24,747 nucleotides of DNA from an uncultured cyanobacterium (lineage in GTDB: Bacteria; Cyanobacteriota; Cyanobacteriia; Cyanobacteriales; Microcystaceae), in NCBI GenBank assembly GCA_963807635.1, contig CAWEDJ010000068.1, positions 1-24,747 on the forward strand, given 5' to 3'. The notes beneath the pieces were generated by a model. It was given only the letters and a program-made list of their open reading frames with translations. It did not search any database and was not told the origin of the DNA. How positions within the stretch are numbered: position 1 is the stretch's first letter; every line of letters begins with the position of its first letter. Both the position numbers and the translations under genes were made by a program. Below, piece by piece: positions 8,007-23,179 of the stretch.

Positions 8007-9752
8007 ATGTTAAACAATTTGAGCAAGGTTTTTGGGATTGGGTTAATCGGTTTAGGAATCACTCCTTTATTTTCGGGAGTCGCCCTAGCCAATGAGGATA
8101 ACCTTGAATCCATCCAAGCATTTCAAAAACAGTCCGCCGCGATCGCCCAAAAACGTCAAAATCTGAAACTCAAAACCTTTCAAGATGGAGGTTTCAGTAG
8201 CGACATGGGAAAAATCACCAATGTCTCAGATATGAACTCGCGATCGATGAATCAGGTGACCAGCGTGAATGAACTCAGGGATGTGCAACCGACTGAATGG
8301 GCCTATGAAGCCCTGAAAAGCTTAGTCGAACGCTATGGTTGCATCGTCGGTTATCCCGATCGCACCTTTCCAGGAAATGGCGCCCTCAGCCGTTGGGAAT
8401 TTGCGGCGGGTTTAAATGCTTGTTTAAACACAATGGAGCGTTTATTACAGGAAAATGTCGCCGTTTTACGGGAAGACATCGACAAGCTCAAACAATTAGC
8501 CCAACAATTTGAACAGGAAATAGGGGCAATGGGGGCAAGGGTTGATAATCTCGAAACGCAACGGCCTGATTTAGAAGACCATCAATTTTCCACGACGACG
8601 AAATTAAATGGTGATGTGATCCTGATCTATTCGGGGGTTGCGGGTACAGAACAGGCTAAATGGCCCGCCGAATCAACCCATCCAAAATGGACAAATCACC
8701 GCCAATTACCGATCGCGGATGAATTTTGATACCAGCTTTACGGGGGAAGATCAACTCCGAGTCAGAATCCAAACGGCTAACTATTTCTTAGGCAGAGCGG
8801 GCAGTAATTTAACCGACTTTAACTTTAGTGTTGCCAGTGATAAAAATATTCCCCAGGTCAATAAACTCCAATATCGCTTTCCTGTGGGTGAGAGTTTAAC
8901 CGTTTGGATCAATGGCGCGAAAATCACCCTAGATGATGTTGCCGATCCCCTAGCTCCCTTTACTAATTCCTTTACCGATGGAGCTTTATCCTTCTTTGGC
9001 GCGATCGCCCCGATTTATTTACTCAGCGATAACACAGGGCCCAGGCGCAGGAGCCTCCTACAGTTTTAGTAAGAATTTAAGTTTAGGAGCCTTTTATTCC
9101 GCAGGAAAAGGATATAGTCCCGAATCAGGCCAGGGTTTATTTAATGGGCAATATGTCGCAGGAACCCAATTAACCTATCTTCCTTCCGCCGACACAGGCA
9201 TTGGGATTGCCTACTCTCGCCAATATATTCCTCAGAATCAATACGATAGCTTTGGAGTGGCAGGATTTACAGGTTTAGCCAATGCGGATAATCCCTTTAG
9301 CTTTGCCAATCGGGACAATTTTGGGGATGGGAACGCCACTTCCTCCGATAACATTGCTATCTTGGGGAACCTGGCGCATCGCTCCTGGTTTCAGCATGGA
9401 AGGTTGGGGAATGTACACCAGTGCTTATGCCGAAGGCGGCAATCGCGCGGGAGATAGTGCCGATATTTGGAACTGGAAAGTTAGTTTTGCCTTTCCTGAC
9501 TTGTTTCAAGAAGGAAATCTCGGCGTAATTTCAGTAGGTCAACCCCCCTATGCAGCCACCCTTAGTAACAATAACAATCTCCCTGACGTAACGCCTTCAA
9601 CAACGACGGCTCCTTGGTTTGCGGAAAGTTTCTATGTCTTTAAGGTGAATGAGAATATCTCCATTTCCCCAGGGCTTTGGGTCGGCACAAGTCCTGCCAA
9701 TGAGCGCGATCCCCTCTGGATTGGGGCAATTCGTACTAGCTTTAAGTTCTAG
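8007..9752 (+). CDS. Cyanobacterial outer-membrane porin (SLH domain + OprB-like barrel), three frameshifts
   Basis: Signal peptide, 'QVTSVNELRDVQPTEWAYEALKSLVERYGCIVGYPD', 'QFSTTTKLNG', 'FDTSFTGEDQL' and C-terminal 'GAIRTSFKF'. Confidence 0.9.
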
Positions 9753-11812: not shown

Positions 11813-13849
11813 ATGGAACTGCTTTATCAATATGCCTGGATCATTCCTGTGTTGCCCTTGGTGGCGGCCATGATTGTCGGTCTGGGATTAATTTCTTTTA
11901 ATCAAGTTACCAATGGATTGCGTCAACTCAATGCGGTACTGATCGTTTTTTTCCTCGGTACGGCAATGGTCTTATCCTTTGCGCTGTTGGTCAGTCAACT
12001 GCAAGGTCATGAATCCTATCGCTATATGTTGGAGTGGGCCTCGGCGGGCGACTTCAAGCTAGAAATGGGATTTGTAATCGACCATCTCAGCGCACTCATG
12101 CTGGTAATTGTCACCTCCGTTGCGTTTCTGGTGATGATCTATACCGATGGTTATATGGCCCATGACTCTGGTTATGTGCGGTTTTATGCCTATTTAAGTT
12201 TATTTGCCTCTTCCATGTTGGGTTTAGTCATTAGCCCCAACCTCAGTTCAGGTTTATATTTTCTGGGAATTGGTGGGGATGTGTTCCTATTTGCTGATTG
12301 GCTTCTGGTATGACCGCAAAGCCGCCGCCGATGCCTGCCAAAAAGCCTTTGTGACCAATCGAGTCGGTGACTTCGGTTTACTTTTAGGAATTTTGGGTTT
12401 ATATTGGGCGACCAATAGTTTTGATTTTCCTGTGATTGGAGAACGTTTGGAACAATTGGTTTCTTCAGGAGCCATGAGCGGTGCGATCGCGTCTTTCTTG
12501 GCAATTTTAGTGTTTCTGGGGCCAGTTGCGAAATCAGCCCAGTTTCCCCTCCACGTTTGGTTGCCCGATGCAATGGAAGGCCCGACCCCCATTTCGGCCT
12601 TGATTCATGCGGCGACGATGGTTGCGGCAGGGGTATTCCTGATTGCTCGGCTCTACCCCGTCTTTGAACCCTTACCCGTGGTCATGAACGTGATCGCCTG
12701 GACAGGTTGCACAACCGCCGTTTTAGGAGCCACGATCGCCTTAACGCAAAATGACATCAAAAAAGGATTAGCCTATTCCACCATTTCCCAGTTGGGTTAT
12801 ATGGTCATGGCCATGGGAATTGGAGCTTATTCGGCAGGATTATTCCATCTGATGACCCATGCTTTCTTTAAAGCCATGCTCTTCCTTTGTTCTGGCTCTG
12901 TCATTCATGGCATGGAAGCCGTTGTCGGTCATGATCCCGTTTTGGCGCAGGATATGCGAATTATGGGCGGTTTACGCAAATATATGCCCGTTACTGCGAC
13001 TTGCTTTTTAATTGGAACTTTAGCGATTTGTGGGATTCCCCCCTTTGCAGGTTTTTGGTCTAAAGATGAAATTCTCGGTCTTGGCCTTTGCAAGCGAATC
13101 CTGCTCTCTGGGCGATCGGTTGGTTAACGGCGGGTTTAACGGCTTTTTATATGTTCCGTATGTACTTCATGACCTTTGAAGGCGGTTTTCGGGGTAATGA
13201 TAAATCCTTACAAAATAAGGTGATGGAATTCTATGGATTGCTCACTCCCGCTTTTGGGCCTGGCGCAATGGATGTCAAGGAGTTAGATCATGATACTCAT
13301 CACAGTCATTCCCCCCACGAGTCGCCCATCGCCATGACCCTACCCTTGATGGTGTTGGCCATTCCTTCGGTTCTCATTGGTTTAATCGGCAAACCCTGGG
13401 CTAACCAGTTTGAAGCGTTTATCCATGCCCCAGGGGAAGTCGTGGAAGCGATCGCAGAATTTGATTGGTCTGAGTTTTATGTGATGGCAGGAAGTTCCAT
13501 TGGGATCGGTTTAATCGGCATCAGTATTGCCATTTTGATGTATCTGCAACACAAAATTGATCCCGCCGCGATCGCCGAAAAATTCCCGACTCTTTACCGT
13601 TTGTCTTTAAATAAATGGTATTTCGATGATATTTACGATGCCATCTTTGTGAGAGGTTCACGTCGTTTAGCCCGTCAAATTATGGAAGTGGATTATCGGG
13701 TGATTGATGGAGCCGTTAACCTCACGGGTTTAGTGACTTTGGTTAGTGGTGAAGGTTTGAAATACCTAGAAAATGGTCGCGCTCAATTTTATGCGTTGAT
13801 TGTATTTGCGGCTGTTTTAGGATTTGTTGTTGTGTTTAGTGTGGTTTAA
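11813..13849 (+). CDS. ndhF1: NAD(P)H-quinone oxidoreductase subunit 5 (NdhF1), frameshifts near 12245 and 13085
   Basis: [10 protein letters not shown] start, [53 protein letters not shown] and [14 protein letters not shown]. Confidence 0.95.
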
Positions 13850-14812: not shown

Positions 14813-15217
14813 TCAACGGGAATCTATGATGTGATCGCGCCCTATTTTATCACCTTCGATTTTATCCTGGGCAATATTATCGCCTCTTTCATTCGTTTGA
14901 ACTGTAACAGTCGAGTTTTGAATGAGAACTGACGCTTTAGAATCTTTGATTGTTTCATCATCAGATACTTCGGAAATATAAGCTGCAAGAAGATATAATT
15001 CCTCTTTTAGTTGGTCTAGTTCTTTGCCAGATAAATTATCTTTATTGTCAATTTTCTCGACAATCTCTATTATTTTATCTGATATTTCTTCTTTAATTCT
15101 TAAAATTTCATCTTCAAGTATATCCCTAATTTGCTGTTGCAAACTTTCAGATAGTCGTTGAATTTTTTTAGAGCGTTCCTGTTTTAGAAGTGTCAATTTG
15201 TCTTGGATTTTACTCAT
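14813..15217 (-). CDS. Hypothetical charged helical/coiled-coil protein with a C-terminal GDKI-repeat motif (possibly the frameshifted C-terminus of the Roc-COR protein)
   Basis: ATG at 15217 lies 7 nt after the Roc-COR stop, with GGAG upstream. The E/K/I/L-rich helical body is followed by VLIQNSTVTVQTNERGDNIAQDKIEGDKIGRDHII. Confidence 0.75.
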   Translation of the reverse strand: MSKIQDKLTLLKQERSKKIQRLSESLQQQIRDILEDEILRIKEEISDKIIEIVEKIDNKDNLSGKELDQLKEELYLLAAYISEVSDDETIKDSKASVLIQNSTVTVQTNERGDNIAQDKIEGDKIGRDHIIDSR

Positions 15218-15224
15218 TGTTAAG

Positions 15225-16793
15225 CTACTCCCCAAGTTTGGCCAGCCCTTTGCTAATACGCTCTTTTAAAACTTCCCGTTGACTGAGCAGTTTTGGGTCT
15301 CTTTGGTAAACAGTAAATGGTTCAATCCCATTCATTAATAGCTGAACGTTAATTGGGGTTGTCATACCATCAGGAATAATTTCGCGTATTCCTTCTCTTT
15401 CACAGGCCAAGATAGTTTGATAATCAACAGAAAAGTTCGGATGGTTTGGAATCGGCACACGTTCTGAGACTTGAAGATTAGCAAAAGTCATGTGAATACT
15501 ATCCAATTCATAACGAATAGCTGCAAGGGCATCACGTCGAGTATTGGGTAAGCCAGTAACAAAAATATTAATCGTTTTTTCTTCAAAATCAGCAACAATT
15601 TGAGCGATATTCTCCTTTAAATTTAAAACGACACCATTACGCCAAACAGAGTTTTGAGCGATAAATTGATTTTGACGTACAATAAACCGAAACACTATAT
15701 TTTCGGGTAAGAAATCGTAACGATATTGAAATTGCAGAGAGTCACTCCAATCCTGTAATTCAACTTCTAGGGGAATTTCTTTAGAAAGCAGATTTGGAAT
15801 AAGAAAACGTTCATTTTTTAATTCATAACACCACTGAAAAAATTGCATGATATCAAGAATAAAGCGATGTTTATTCACAGGGTAACGATTACAATCTAAC
15901 ATTTTTGTTAGTGAGTCGAAAGATACAATGCCTTTATCTTCTCTAATTAAACTAGAAGTAAAAATCGAATAAATCGCTCCCGTCAACCATTCAGGATTAA
16001 TGATAATCGTATGACCGAGTCGAGAATTATCAAAATAGACAATAGAACCGAGATCATGGAGAAAATTAATTAATACTGATTGATCTGTTGATTTAATTAG
16101 TCCATGTTTTATACAGATTATTTGATAATCTTCATAGGCAATATAATCTTCATCTAAATTGACTAAAGCTGCCTTGATTTCAAGCCACGTTTTCGGGATC
16201 AGATTAAAAGTATGTGTAAGAGATGAAATAGTCTGTTTGATAAAATCGCGTAACTCATTAATTCCTCTACCTGTTAAACAGGAAACTTCAAAAATACCTT
16301 TAACGTTAGAAAATTTAGAGAATAAAGTCTTTCGATTTATATCTAGTGGCTGTTCATCGTATTTGTTTCCTACAATTAAAACAGGAGAATTACCACCAAA
16401 TGTTTCTATTATTTTAAGCCAATATTCAAGGCGATTTTCTTCTTGAGAAAGACGACTGTTCAATACGAGGATATATAAAGTACGTCTGGTCAAAAAAAGC
16501 TGATGGGTTGCATAGTAAATTTCTTGACCACCAAAATCCCATAAATCAAGCTTAATTGATTGATCGTCTATGTCTAATAACCATGATTTAATATCAATGC
16601 CTTCAGTTTTATTTTCGCTTGCCTTAAAAGTTCCATTTGTTAGTCTTTTAATAAGAGATGTTTTACCAACTCCTCCTTCTCCGACAAAAATAACCCTCGC
16701 TTCATTTAGAGGTAAAACTCCATCGTCACTAACTTCTGAATTTGATAGTGTAGAGTGGCTTGCTACCGTTTGCAATAAATCTTTTTTATTCAT
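15225..16793 (-). CDS. Roc-COR (Roco family) GTPase lacking N-terminal LRRs
   Basis: Roc motifs G1 GEGGVGKT, G2 KTEGIDI, G3 WDFGGQ, G4 GNKYD and G5 VSCLTG. COR motifs FLHDLG.IVYF, INPEWLTGAIY, FLIPNLL, YRYDFLPE....RFIVR and WRNGVVL. Confidence 0.92.
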   Translation of the reverse strand: MNKKDLLQTVASHSTLSNSEVSDDGVLPLNEARVIFVGEGGVGKTSLIKRLTNGTFKASENKTEGIDIKSWLLDIDDQSIKLDLWDFGGQEIYYATHQLFLTRRTLYILVLNSRLSQEENRLEYWLKIIETFGGNSPVLIVGNKYDEQPLDINRKTLFSKFSNVKGIFEVSCLTGRGINELRDFIKQTISSLTHTFNLIPKTWLEIKAALVNLDEDYIAYEDYQIICIKHGLIKSTDQSVLINFLHDLGSIVYFDNSRLGHTIIINPEWLTGAIYSIFTSSLIREDKGIVSFDSLTKMLDCNRYPVNKHRFILDIMQFFQWCYELKNERFLIPNLLSKEIPLEVELQDWSDSLQFQYRYDFLPENIVFRFIVRQNQFIAQNSVWRNGVVLNLKENIAQIVADFEEKTINIFVTGLPNTRRDALAAIRYELDSIHMTFANLQVSERVPIPNHPNFSVDYQTILACEREGIREIIPDGMTTPINVQLLMNGIEPFTVYQRDPKLLSQREVLKERISKGLAKLGE

Positions 16794-16892
16794 TGATTTT
16801 CCGCGAATTTTTTACAAAGTTATTATTAAGGATTGTTCATCTTGGATTGTAAATTTAACTTTACAATTATAATAAATGATTTTTAACACGAT

Positions 16893-17252
16893 CTAAGCAT
16901 CAATAAAACCTTTTAGAGTAGCAATTGTAATTTTGGCAACAGGATGATTAATTGCTTCTTCTAAAGCCGTCGCACCACCTTCTTTGATGGCATTAAACGT
17001 TCGTTGCTTCAGAGTAGGATTAGCCTCAATACTTTCAATGATTTTAGTACTCATCTGTATTTGTCCTAATGGAGTGCTGCTATCATAATCTTGAGAAAGT
17101 TGAGCAATCAGATTGTGAATGTCCTGAGCCGCTTGAACTAAGTTTTGGGAATGGTAATGAACGATTTTGTCACGACCAATCTTATCCCCTGCGATTTTGT
17201 CACCCGCAATATTATCACCGCCTCCGTCATTTCGTTGGTAAATGTTGGACAT
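16893..17252 (-). CDS. Small protein: N-terminal GDKI-repeat motif plus a cyanobacterial helical domain
   Basis: MSNIYQRNDGGGDNIAGDKIAGDKIGRDKIV followed by 'QNLVQAAQDIHNLIAQLSQ.Y....IE.NPTLKQR..NAIKEGG..ALEEAINHPVAKITIATLKGF'. I recall this helical module at the C-termini of many cyanobacterial multidomain proteins. Confidence 0.8.
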   Translation of the reverse strand: MSNIYQRNDGGGDNIAGDKIAGDKIGRDKIVHYHSQNLVQAAQDIHNLIAQLSQDYDSSTPLGQIQMSTKIIESIEANPTLKQRTFNAIKEGGATALEEAINHPVAKITIATLKGFIDA

Positions 17253-17632: not shown

Positions 17633-20110
17633 ATGTTTGAACGCTTTACAGAAAAGGCAATTAAAGTAATCATGCTCGCTCAAGAAGAAGCCCGTCGCCT
17701 CGGACATAATTTCGTTGGCACGGAACAAATTCTTCTTGGGCTTGATTGGTGAAGGAACAGGAGTCGCGGCTAAAGTTTTGAAATCAATGGGGGTTAATCT
17801 TAAAGATGCTCGCATTGAAGTCGAAAAAATCATTGGGCGTGGCTCTGGCTTTGTGGCGGTGGAAATTCCCTTTACCCCAAGGGCCAAAAGAGTTCTGGAG
17901 CTTTCTTTAGAAGAGGCTCGCCAACTAGGTCATAACTACATCGGCACGGAACATCTGCTTCTGGGTTTAATCCGTGAAGGAGAAGGCGTTGCGGCAAGAG
18001 TTCTCGAAAATTTGGGAGTCGATCTTTCTAAGGTTCGTACCCAAGTCATTCGGATGCTCGGCGAAACGGCAGAAGTCACCGCAGGTGGCGGTGGTGGTGG
18101 ACGAACCAAAACGCCTACCTTAGACGAATTTGGCTCTAATCTGACCCAATTAGCGGCTGATGGTAAACTCGATCCCGTCGTGGGTCGTCAAAAAGAAATT
18201 GAACGGGTGATCCAGATTCTTGGGTCGCCGGACTAAAAATAATCCTGTTTTAATCGGGGAACCGGGAGTCGGTAAAACTGCGATCGCGAAGGATTAGCCC
18301 AACGCATTGCTAATGAGGATATTCCCGACATTCTCGAAGATAAGCGCGTTATGACCCTTGATATTGGTCTGCTGGTCGCAGGAACTAAATATCGCGGGGA
18401 ATTTGAAGAACGCCTGAAAAAGATTATGGATGAAATTCGCACAAGCTGGAAACGTGATCTTAGTGATTGACGAAGTTCATACCTTCATTGGTGCAGGGGC
18501 AGCCGAAGGGCGCGATCGATGCCGCCAATATTCTCAAACCTGCCTTGGCACGGGGAGAATTGCAGTGCATTGGTGCCACGACCCTGGATGAGTACCGTAA
18601 GCACATTGAACGAGATGCCGCTCTGGAACGACGTTTTCAGCCCGTCATGGTCGGTGAACCCTCGCGTGGATGAAACCATTGAAATTTTCTACGGACTGCG
18701 GGAACGTTACGAACAGCACCATAAATTAAAAATCTTAGATGAAGCATTGATGCGGCGGCTAAATTAGCTGATCGTTACATTTCTGATCGATTTTTACCCG
18801 ATAAAGCCATTGATTTAATCGATGAAGCGGGTTCGCGGGTTCGTTTGATCAATTCCCAATTACCTCCTGCGGCAAAGGAATTAGATAAGGAATTGCGTCA
18901 AATTCTCAAGCAAAAAGATGATGCGGTGCGGGCTCAAGAATTTGATGAAGCCGGTAAACTCCGCGATCGCGAAATGGAAATCAAACAGCAAATCCGAGAA
19001 ATTGCTTCTGCTAAGAAAAACTGAGGGAGAAACGATGAACCTCAAGTGACCGTCGGAAGAAATTGCCCATATTGTCGCTTCTTGGACAGGCGTTCCCGTT
19101 AATAAACTGACGGAATCCGAATCCGACAAACTGATGCACATGGAAGATACTCTCCATCAGCGTTTAATTGGTCAAGAAGATGCAGTGAAAGCCGTTTCTC
19201 GTGCGATCCGTCGGGCAAGAGTTGGACTCAAAAATCCCAACCGTCCGATCGCTAGCTTTATCTTCTCTGGGCCGACTGGGGTTGGTAAAACTGAGTTAAC
19301 CAAGGCTCTGGCCGCCTATTTCTTCGGTTCAGAAGATGCCATGATTCGCCTCGATATGTCGGAGTTTATGGAGCGTCACACCGTTTCTAAATTGATTGGT
19401 TCTCCTCCAGGCTATGTGGGCTACAACGAAGGCGGTCAGTTAACGGAAGCTGTGCGTCGTCGTCCCTACACCGTCGTTCTGTTTGATGAAATTGAAAAAG
19501 CTCACCCCGATGTCTTTAATATGCTGCTTGCAGATTTTAGAAGATGGTCGCTTAACGGATGCCAAGGGTCGGACAGTAGATTTCAAGAATACCCTCTTGA
19601 TCATGACCTCCAATATTGGGTCTAAGGTCATCGAAAAAGGTGGCGGCGGACTCGGCTTTGAATTTGCAGAATGACCAAGCGGAAGCCGCAATACAATCGG
19701 ATTCGCTCCTTGGTGAATGAAGAATTGAAACAATACTTCCGTCCTGAATTCCTTAACCGACTGGATGAAATTATTGTCTTCCGTCAACTCAATCGTCGAG
19801 GAAGTCACCGAGATCGCCGAAATTCTGCTCAAAGAGGTATTTACTCGTTTAGTCGAGAAAAATATCACCCTAGAGGTCACGAGCCAAATTCAAGGAACGT
19901 TTAGTCGAGGAGGGTTACAATCCTTCCTACGGTGCAAGACCCTTGCGTCGGGCGATTATGCGTCTTTTGGAAGATGTCTTGGCGGAAGAAATTCTCATGG
20001 GTCGTTTACGAGATGGCGTAACTGCGATCGTTGACATCAATGAGGAAGGCAAGGTGATTGTTGTCCAAACCGAACAACAGCGAGAATTGATACCCCAAGG
20101 TGTTGAATAA
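17633..20110 (+). CDS. clpC: ATP-dependent Clp protease ATP-binding subunit ClpC (many frameshifts)
   Basis: [32 protein letters not shown] start, [51 protein letters not shown] and YGARPLRR; stop TAA at 20108-20110. Confidence 0.95.
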
Positions 20111-21896: not shown

Positions 21897-23179
21897 GTGA
21901 TTGATACTAACCTAGAATTTTTGGCTGAAACCGATCCCGCGATCGCGGAAATGATTGACCGAGAACTCCAACGACAACGGGTTCACTTAGAACTGATTGC
22001 CAGTGAAAATTTTGCATCCCCTGCGGTACTCGCGGCCAAGGGTTCCGTTTTAACCAATAAATATGCAGAAGGACTCCCGAAAAAACGCTACTACGGAGGC
22101 TGTGAATTTGTTGACCAAGTAGAACAACTCGCCATTGATCGGGTGAAAGAATTATTTGGCGCGGCCCATGCCAATGTTCAGCCCCACTCTGGAGCGCAGG
22201 CAAATTTTGCCGTATTTTTAACTTTACTTGAACCAGGCGACACCATTTTAGGCATGGATTTGTCTCACGGTGGTCATTTAACTCATGGTTCTCCTGTCAA
22301 TGTTTCCGGGAAATGGTTCAAAGCGGCTCACTACGGCGTAAGTCCTGAAACGGAACAGTTGGACTACGACCAGATTCGGGAAGTTGCCCTAAAAGTTAAA
22401 CCTAAACTCTTAATTTGTGGTTATTCCGCCTATCCCCGTATTATCGATTTTGCTAAATTCCGCGCGATCGCCGATGAAGTCGGAGCCTATTTACTGGCCG
22501 ATATTGCTCATATTGCAGGATTAGTTGCCACAGGACACCATCCTAATCCTCTACCCTACTGTGATGTTGTCACCACTACCACCCACAAAACCCTGCGCGG
22601 GCCAAGGGGCGGTCTCATTATGACCAAAGATGCGGAATTGGGTAAAAAGCTGGATAAATCTGTTTTCCCTGGCACCCAGGCGGCCCCCTAGAACACGTCA
22701 TTGCCGCCAAAGCCGTTGCCTTTGGAGAAGCTCTTAAACCATCATTCAAAGCCTACTCAGGTCAAGTGATCGCCAACGCTCAGGCTCTAGCGGCCCAGTT
22801 ACAAAAACGAGGTTTTAAAATTGTCTCTGGTGGCACGGATAATCATTTGATGTTGGTCGATCTGCGATCGATTGGTATGACAGGAAAAGTCGCCGATCAG
22901 TTGATGAGCGAAATCCACGTTACCGCGAACAAAAATACCGTTCCCTTTGATCCCGAATCCCCCTTTGTTACCAGTGGTCTGCGCTTGGGTTCTCCTGCGA
23001 TGACGACTCGTGAGCTAGAAGAAACCGATTTTGCGGAAATTGGTGATATTATCGCGGATTACTTATTAAATCCTGATGATAAAGCAATCAAACAAGCTTG
23101 TTTGCAACGGGTAACCGATCTGTGTAAGCGTTTTCCCCTCTATCCCCATCTAAAAATTCCTGTCGGCGCGGCGGTATAA
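21897..23179 (+). CDS. glyA: Serine hydroxymethyltransferase (frameshift near 22680)
   Basis: [37 protein letters not shown]-lysine motif [20 protein letters not shown] and SGLRLGSPA. Confidence 0.97.

Follow-up and report, generated by a model that had tools for sequence, protein, structure and literature searches.

A Roc-COR GTPase gene between two genes with matched BASS11-like terminal motifs: a candidate motif-coupled cassette in a cyanobacterium

The closest described systems are pairs of neighbouring genes whose products carry matched motifs at their termini. In Bab/Agp (Ibarlosa et al., bioRxiv 10.1101/2024.11.07.622273; NCBIfam GapS6a/GapS6b), according to the main text of the preprint, a TPR-GreA/B-PIN or STAND receptor with an N-terminal motif is joined to an effector with an N-terminal hydrophobic helix and a C-terminal motif, of the form Q-x3-G-x-G-D-N-[IV]-x-G-[ND]-K. 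There, BASS11 peptides assemble into fibrils and are required for anti-phage activity, proline at N100 and N12 abolishes assembly and T5 resistance, Agp activates Bab, and motifs are exchangeable between systems in E. coli. For the NLR/Bell pairs, whose motifs are BASS1-10, and for the fungal NWD2/HET-S pair, the text of the preprint by Dyrka et al. (bioRxiv 10.1101/2020.01.06.895854) describes adjacent collinear genes sharing a G/N/Q-rich motif of about 25 residues; in NLR/Bell, a NACHT/NB-ARC receptor carries the motif at its N-terminus and the effector at its C-terminus. LRR-AP-GTPase(Roc)-COR proteins, common in cyanobacteria, are predicted counter-invader systems and are described in the article text as single chains with leucine-rich repeats (LRRs) and variable, fused C-terminal effector modules (Kaur et al. 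2021, PMC8195603). Here we describe three genes, A, B and C, on the minus strand of a cyanobacterial contig, within the 24,747-nt stretch that was analysed as a whole (the window). B encodes a Roc-COR GTPase, A and C share a short motif, and we lean slightly towards a reading in which this BASS11-like motif would form the link between the Roco GTPase and a small helical effector, with a polarity inverted relative to NLR/Bell and Agp/Bab.

The shared segment, GDNIAGDKIAGDKIGRDKI (A 12-30) and GDNIAQDKIEGDKIGRDHI (C 112-130), is identical at 16 of 19 positions, as the first-pass annotation of the window had noted. Its further observation that A and C have nothing else in common was borne out: tblastn (E 2.7e-4 across 20 aa, against the genome) and hhalign (28 columns, E 4e-7) align the motif region alone. 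A loose regular expression for the motif, run over six frames of the 4.03-Mb genome, gave four matches, namely A, C, a motif-plus-helical gene on contig C7 and one false hit in a coiled coil; since this leaves a single other real copy genome-wide, the match between A and C is not due to chance. Among 267 collected motif variants the best match of the C motif outside its own family is the A family (16-17 of 19), and the matched copies belong to products of nearby genes, two genes apart. At the codon level, 9 of the 16 shared residues differ silently and 7 have identical codons; over 18 pairs, identical shared codons amount to 50% within own pairs vs 46% across loci. A recent DNA duplication or a recombination junction as source of the two copies is thus unsupported by the silent sites, and because the silent codons differ, the match is maintained at the protein level. 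The A motif columns show 99% identity in 18 distinct close homologues; the terminal motif of C is retained in 24 of 24 distinct full-length close homologues and also in a homologue of 42% identity (P0051/P0059). Residues 1-32 of A are disordered in the AlphaFold2 monomer model (pLDDT <50). A complex prediction for three copies each of A(1-38) and C(93-134) scored 0.02, unlike the calibration of the tool, and is neutral either way. The third genomic copy (G000:C7:10086-10670; L144, also L130) consists of an unnamed N-terminal region, GDK pentads and a helical domain of a second type, and sits downstream of a broken LRR-TIR gene.

The motif could be assigned to a family with a profile built from 11 segments of Bab homologues and their partners, gathered without the GDK pattern; membership in BASS11 was thus tested via homologues. 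Over the 14,578 open reading frames (ORFs; 1.72 million windows) of the genome, this profile ranked A first (23.1 bits) and C second (20.6 bits), the next ORF reaching 12.5 bits. As A and C come out on top of the genome, we judge their motif to be BASS11-like by sequence. The same profile gave 5-20 bits for 18 of 21 distinct Roco tails ending in the motif, a set defined by a related regular expression, and at most -3.4 bits for 94 other Roco tails. The Bab homologues, which match PDB entry 9h9v (E 1.6e-18) as well as GapS6a, end in QxHxGxGDN[IV]xGNK, and their partners start alike. One of them, L277 (109 residues), fits the residues I87-G88-S89-V90, Q92, D99 and N100 of the preprint when the numbering is shifted by one and Thr is taken in place of Ser; its partner has N12 when counted from the second Met, and the residue spacing in L277/L278 agrees with published Bab and Agp. 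The A motif is identical to that of L277 at 10 of 21 positions, and the likeness of A to this Bab homologue is confined to the motif. At a Photobacterium locus (L188), a HetE-N/GapS6a-like gene ending in the motif adjoins a GapS6b-like gene starting with it, and both partners show the GDK-pentad form. A broad scan of prokaryotes (at least 125 stretches) found the motif in Chloroflexota, cyanobacteria, actinomycetes and others. Among 52 motif-bearing proteins, chosen by hand with apparent low-complexity repeats left out, 30 had STAND/NACHT, TIR, caspase/CHAT, EAD, TCAD2, Roco or HetE-N domains and 10 had no Pfam match; companions beyond Roco were NACHT/nSTAND, TIR, caspase/CHAT and EAD7 proteins. 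The amyloid-like character proposed in the first-pass annotation agrees with the resemblance to the experimentally tested BASS11 motif, but the family was already known and is not restricted to Roco proteins. That the motif forms amyloid-type stacks is probable. In a word search of the BASS data file, GDKI, GDKV, GRDK and GNKI first occurred in its negative PDB sets.

Matched pairs beside Roc-COR genes are not confined to the window. An unbiased sample comprised 80 of the 84 COR-B places in 301 cyanobacterial genomes, from which the two of the own genome, that of L002 and one weak hit had been omitted. Its Roco ORFs whose 3' end is complete number 77; the motif closes 5 of them, a fused helical module 22, and the other 50 have different ends. 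All five motif-ending ORFs have a gene for a motif plus helical domain within 2.5 kb downstream, vs 1 of the 72 others with a downstream helical-module ORF. In an enlarged set, biased by sampling as it includes loci retrieved through the motif (from a scan with matches in 51 of 401 genomes, and the prokaryote stretches mentioned above), 20 of 23 motif-ending Roco ORFs (18 of 21 distinct) have such a neighbour. The effector at these loci carries the A domain or the second helical type, and the genes between split partners vary (DUF6883/DUF4926, HNH, XisH/I, a membrane protein). The reversed polarity that had been proposed for the window, with the motif C-terminal on the GTPase and N-terminal on the small partner, therefore recurs at cyanobacterial Roco loci, while the GTPase of the window itself bears neither the motif nor LRRs. 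The window is unlike the other loci in three respects: the effector gene lies upstream, the Roco protein is without LRRs, and the receptor-side motif is on C. As the GTPase is without the motif, a contact between B and C has to be assumed.

The helical domain of A matched no Pfam, NCBIfam or PADLOC family. The AlphaFold2 model places helices at residues 36-52, 61-77, 79-92, 94-101 and 104-118. Foldseek returned nothing at E <= 0.001, a search of PDB sequences with the A alignment gave no match, and a structure search reached at best an uninformative Z of 5.6, in which the absence of Bell domains from the matches does not exclude a relation. In the ESM Atlas, the matches of A were cyanobacterial clusters without a name, and a lead to TCAD2 stood at 0.88; HetE-N was matched in 1 of 25 A homologues, at E 0.07. 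The mildly hydrophobic helix at 101-117 has a mean hydropathy of 0.85, and the first helix in a Bab homologue one of 0.95; the most hydrophobic helix of A lies opposite the motif end, a weak parallel to Bab. Because the longer homologues of A end in the A domain, A is a free copy of the C-terminal module that is fused to cyanobacterial LRR-Roc-COR proteins: 14 of 14 carry COR-B with the A domain C-terminal to it, and in 13 the motif precedes the A domain. Among these 13, 12 have a Met 8-18 residues upstream of the motif, where free A starts; this Met is a possible internal translation start. In the fused LRR-Roc-COR-A proteins P0027-P0039 the position is kept, with Val in P0037. Among the fused proteins, P0027 is closest to A (65%); over COR it also comes nearer to B (42.5%) than any other non-orthologue, and being nearest to both, it suggests an origin of the cassette from a P0027-like fused Roco gene. 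At one further locus (L129:5548-8593, identical with L211), another N-terminal motif (QQNFNAPVxGVAGxVxGDQII) is common to an A-domain gene and the NB-ARC-TPR gene that follows it; the A domain thus also pairs with a canonical NLR, both motifs being N-terminal.

A rival explanation sees the two motif copies as left over from the splitting and reshuffling of genes, without a joint function, the motif being a linker or a DNA swap junction. A equals the fused Roco tail from the internal Met onward, the DUF6883/DUF4926, HNH and XisH/I genes stand between split partners as they would after insertions, and P0028 resembles a deletion join of a split pair. Yet the silent sites of the copies are not homogenised, the motif is kept in all close C homologues and in the distant P0051/P0059, and Roco-terminal copies recur in several families. 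This explanation is already weakened, and we regard it as improbable.

B was confirmed as a Roc-COR protein by Pfam: Roc at 33-146 (E 8e-32), COR-A at 200-336 (E 9e-38) and COR-B at 351-488 (E 9e-30). The window copy retains the G1-G5 motifs (GxxxxGKT, TEG, DFGGQ, NKxD, SCL). About 30 residues precede Roc, with no open upstream frame, and this N-terminus is alike in L002, L003, L296 and L297. The stop lies 34 residues past COR-B, after a short basic tail that is helical by inspection; it is conserved in five related loci, without a fused C-terminal effector. The six-frame search of the genome gave no motif on B. C combines a long helical hairpin with a beta-prone tail. Its family is rare, occurring in 2 of 401 genomes of the order including the own genome, and has two distant relatives, of which one shares the terminal motif and the other ends in a different beta-type motif. 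A fold search with C reached a best Z of 7.6 to generic helical hairpins and was uninformative, the ESM Atlas held nothing above 0.8, and a metagenome scan found three loci with the C sequence alone and no match with the C alignment.

These features would fit a three-part relay of a nucleotide switch (B), a motif-bearing adaptor (C) and an effector converted by templating (A), to which we give a narrow preference. C would bind B, probably through the tail of B and the first helix of C, and would thus deliver in trans a motif borne by other Roco proteins at the C-terminus. A nucleotide-dependent change in the oligomeric state of B could then gather C motifs and nucleate a cross-beta stack; A motifs would join this stack, clustering or opening the helical domain of A, and activated A might harm the cell, perhaps at the membrane, as an abortive defence. 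The individual steps differ in credibility. Co-assembly of A and C via the motif is fairly likely, control of this assembly by B is favoured by a small margin over its opposite, and for cell death or anti-phage defence as the output the chances are about even. The wider proposition, that bacterial Roco GTPases signal by amyloid templating, with a nucleotide-driven change in the Roc-COR dimer nucleating a C-terminal, BASS11-type cross-beta seed (in the window on the separate adaptor C) that activates helical death effectors with N-terminal motifs, and thus mirroring NLR/HET-S, is put forward tentatively, as somewhat less than an even prospect; under it, the fused forms may make free effector from the internal start codon.

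A number of observations weigh against the relay. A recognisable toxic domain was not found in A by family and fold searches. The A/C motif is rich in lysine, unlike BASS1-10, which the text of the preprint (bioRxiv 10.1101/2020.01.06.895854) reports as depleted in K, and GDKx repeats also occur in low-complexity proteins without a defence domain (e.g., L159, L173, L195, L206, L212). The Fisher p of 3e-7 for the link between a terminal motif and a downstream effector is overstated, as kin are not independent. In 18 pairs (L126 and two duplicate loci left out), motif identity was 0.575 at the own locus vs 0.563 across loci (permutation p 0.23); of the co-varying pairs that the first-pass annotation had suggested looking for beside Roc-COR, the pairing is thus found, but the co-variation is absent. 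B has no LRR sensor according to Pfam and the upstream frames. Roc-COR is known as a dimer (PMC7159879, article text) and would offer a smaller nucleus than a STAND ring. Roc is the fastest-evolving part of B (dN/dS 0.39-0.56), three of the four full-length orthologues of B have altered switch motifs, namely DFSVQ in the near-identical L003 and L296 and DFGRQ in L297, and C is frameshifted in L297.

Part of these points would suit a motif that acts as a docking tag without amyloid templating, A being a stoichiometric partner, an inhibitor or a decoy rather than a killer. Pairing of A and C would then need a few beta-strands or charge-complementary GDKI repeats. A generic tag agrees with the high charge of the motif, with the missing locus-specific co-variation and with an A domain of no known toxic fold, and the fused Roco proteins unite the motif with the A domain in a single chain and so have no need of templating in trans. 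Against this, the nearest characterised motif is a demonstrated amyloid switch, and the Met ahead of the motif in nearly all fused forms could yield free A. We consider the docking tag unlikely. Still less likely is that A and C form a functional pair for which B, as a relaxed remnant or scaffold, is not the switch, the trigger being supplied by C or by an LRR-Roco protein or NLR elsewhere. Such a role agrees with the fast Roc domain and its altered switch motifs, with the absence of LRRs and motif from B and with a motif family that serves STAND, TIR and caspase proteins too; the genome also has another LRR-Roco gene (contig C63) besides the motif gene on C7. However, B is full-length between A and C in four of four complete relatives (L002, L003, L296, L297), its dN/dS stays below 0.45, its P-loop and NKxD are retained in all four orthologues, and the Roco protein of C63 ends in a different, membrane-type tail.

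The preferred reading, a Roco GTPase coupled to a helical effector by the motif, places the cassette close to the known systems: it would work like the Bab/Agp and NLR/Bell pairs, yet is a member of neither. With Bab/Agp, as given in the main text of the preprint, it has in common a related motif, whose matched copies stand at the ends of proteins from neighbouring genes, together with a small helical partner and a mobile, defence-like setting. With NLR/Bell, the coexistence of all-in-one and split forms and the occurrence in multicellular or colonial bacteria agree, as far as the text of that preprint describes them. The differences from Bab/Agp are a large gene that encodes a motif-free Roc-COR protein, an A protein that is not a Bell/Babybell domain and has no HetE-N or GapS6a match, an inverted polarity with the motif N-terminal on A, extra GDKI pentads, and a third gene carrying the receptor-side motif. 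Relative to NLR/Bell the order is inverted and a STAND gene is missing; relative to the counter-invader proteins in the text of PMC8195603 the Roc-COR core is the same, whereas B has neither LRRs nor a fused effector. PADLOC gave no match of note for A, B or C. A passage on Roco, COR, LRR or GTPase was absent from the searched main text of the Bab/Agp preprint, its figures and tables being outside this search; BASS, amyloid, HetE and DUF4926 have no occurrence in the Fig. 6 source data of PMC8195603; and no Roco-amyloid system was found in the literature searched, including PMC8086366, PMC12261475 and PMC13506858, a body of text that barely covers subscription journals, figures and bioRxiv supplements. 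The motif family is known, and what appears to be new is its link to a Roc-COR GTPase in inverted order.

LRRK2 is a Roco protein linked to Parkinson's disease, and bacterial Roco proteins are used as its structural models. In the papers considered here, bacterial Roco proteins have a predicted defence role only; the cassette would link them to amyloid-controlled abortive defence, an output that has been established by experiment. If this is true, amyloid signalling extends from STAND and TPR-GreA/B-PIN receptors to a GTPase, motif polarity is shown to be invertible, and an unnamed family of helical effectors is added in many cyanobacteria, including bloom-formers.

The co-orientation of the three genes stated in the first-pass annotation was confirmed, and the features are listed in Table 1.

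Table 1. Genes and features of the cassette, with positions in the 24,747-nt window
Feature	Position	Strand	Description
Gene A	16893..17252	-	119 aa; presumed effector; N-terminal BASS11-like motif, then five-helix domain
A motif	17163..17246	-	residues 3-30; QxxxGxGDNIAGDK core, then (G/R)DKI pentads
A helical domain	16899..17147	-	residues 36-118; last helix 101-117 mildly hydrophobic
Gene B	15225..16793	-	522 aa; Roc-COR GTPase without LRRs and without fused effector
B P-loop GEGGVGKT	16659..16682	-	residues 38-45
Gene C	14813..15217	-	134 aa; presumed adaptor; long helical hairpin/coiled coil 3-84, then N/Q/V/T stretch, motif
C motif	14828..14911	-	residues 103-130; 19-aa core 112-130

A DUF29 gene adjoins the cassette on one side and a divergent clpC on the other. 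The start of C is most likely ATG 15217, 7 nt past the stop of B, rather than TTG 15235, since C homologues begin with MSKI. In the window, frameshifts interrupt clpC (17642-19904), ndhF (11813-13849), glyA (21897-23179) and an oprB porin gene (8007-9752), and genes on contigs C10 and C63 are broken likewise; the first 455 codons of clpC are continuous in L002, and the splits are probably indel errors of the assembly. Because housekeeping genes of the assembly are broken, the boundary between B and C was examined as a possible sequencing frameshift. This was ruled out, as the same B stop is found in L002, L003 and the three metagenome loci L296, L297 and L298; a read-derived contig (run X1) spans the junction (15030-15383) without a gap. 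A programmed +1 frameshift at the junction is disfavoured: the GGGG run is not the same in L003, and a conserved ATG of its own is available to C. Contigs of at least three runs have a one-base gap at 15703 within B, which may be broken or compensated in these strains. A promoter scan gave 12 sites vs 11.8 expected, and no RNA data covering the stretch were listed.

The entire cassette is present in 2 of 40 related genomes, at the same site in L002 and at another site in L003, where it is flanked by acetyl-CoA synthetase-like and mutL-like genes (named by eye from translations). Named records with homologues of A and C include, for instance, KA717_07260 and KA717_07270 in Woronichinia naegeliana WA131. 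Over five loci, the pairwise dN/dS was 0.06-0.15 for A, 0.27-0.43 for B and 0.14-0.25 for C; each gene is thus under purifying selection, and a pseudogene cassette was rejected on these values. The GC content is 31-38% in the cassette and 45-51% in conserved flanking genes. We incline, by a little, to regard A-B-C as a mobile, defence-type cassette. Between the window and L002 the synonymous distance is 0.30 for B and 0.43 for C, 0.04 for A and 0.07-0.17 for flanking genes; B and C seem to have been exchanged between strains separately from A.

This or another shared motif was also met in other settings. In actinomycetes and one cyanobacterium (L149, L197, L207, L260, L111), DUF6232 membrane proteins end in a motif with which the small helical protein encoded next begins, possibly a membrane-sensor version of the same wiring. 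An ORF of 67 codons (L107:5881-6084) is made up almost wholly of two motifs, of which one is reminiscent of the upstream NACHT-HEAT protein's end and the other of a downstream HEAT-helical protein; it is a possible motif adaptor. Large viral contigs (L280, L290, L295) encode proteins of at least 450 aa with a BASS11-like motif near the C-terminus; these could be phage-borne decoys or defence genes. In Azospirillum (L153:5800-9179), a short membrane-type ORF ending in GDK pentads lies ahead of a small ATPase-containing cluster; L162 and L190 were noted beside it, and Streptococcus proteins also bear the motif in mid-chain.

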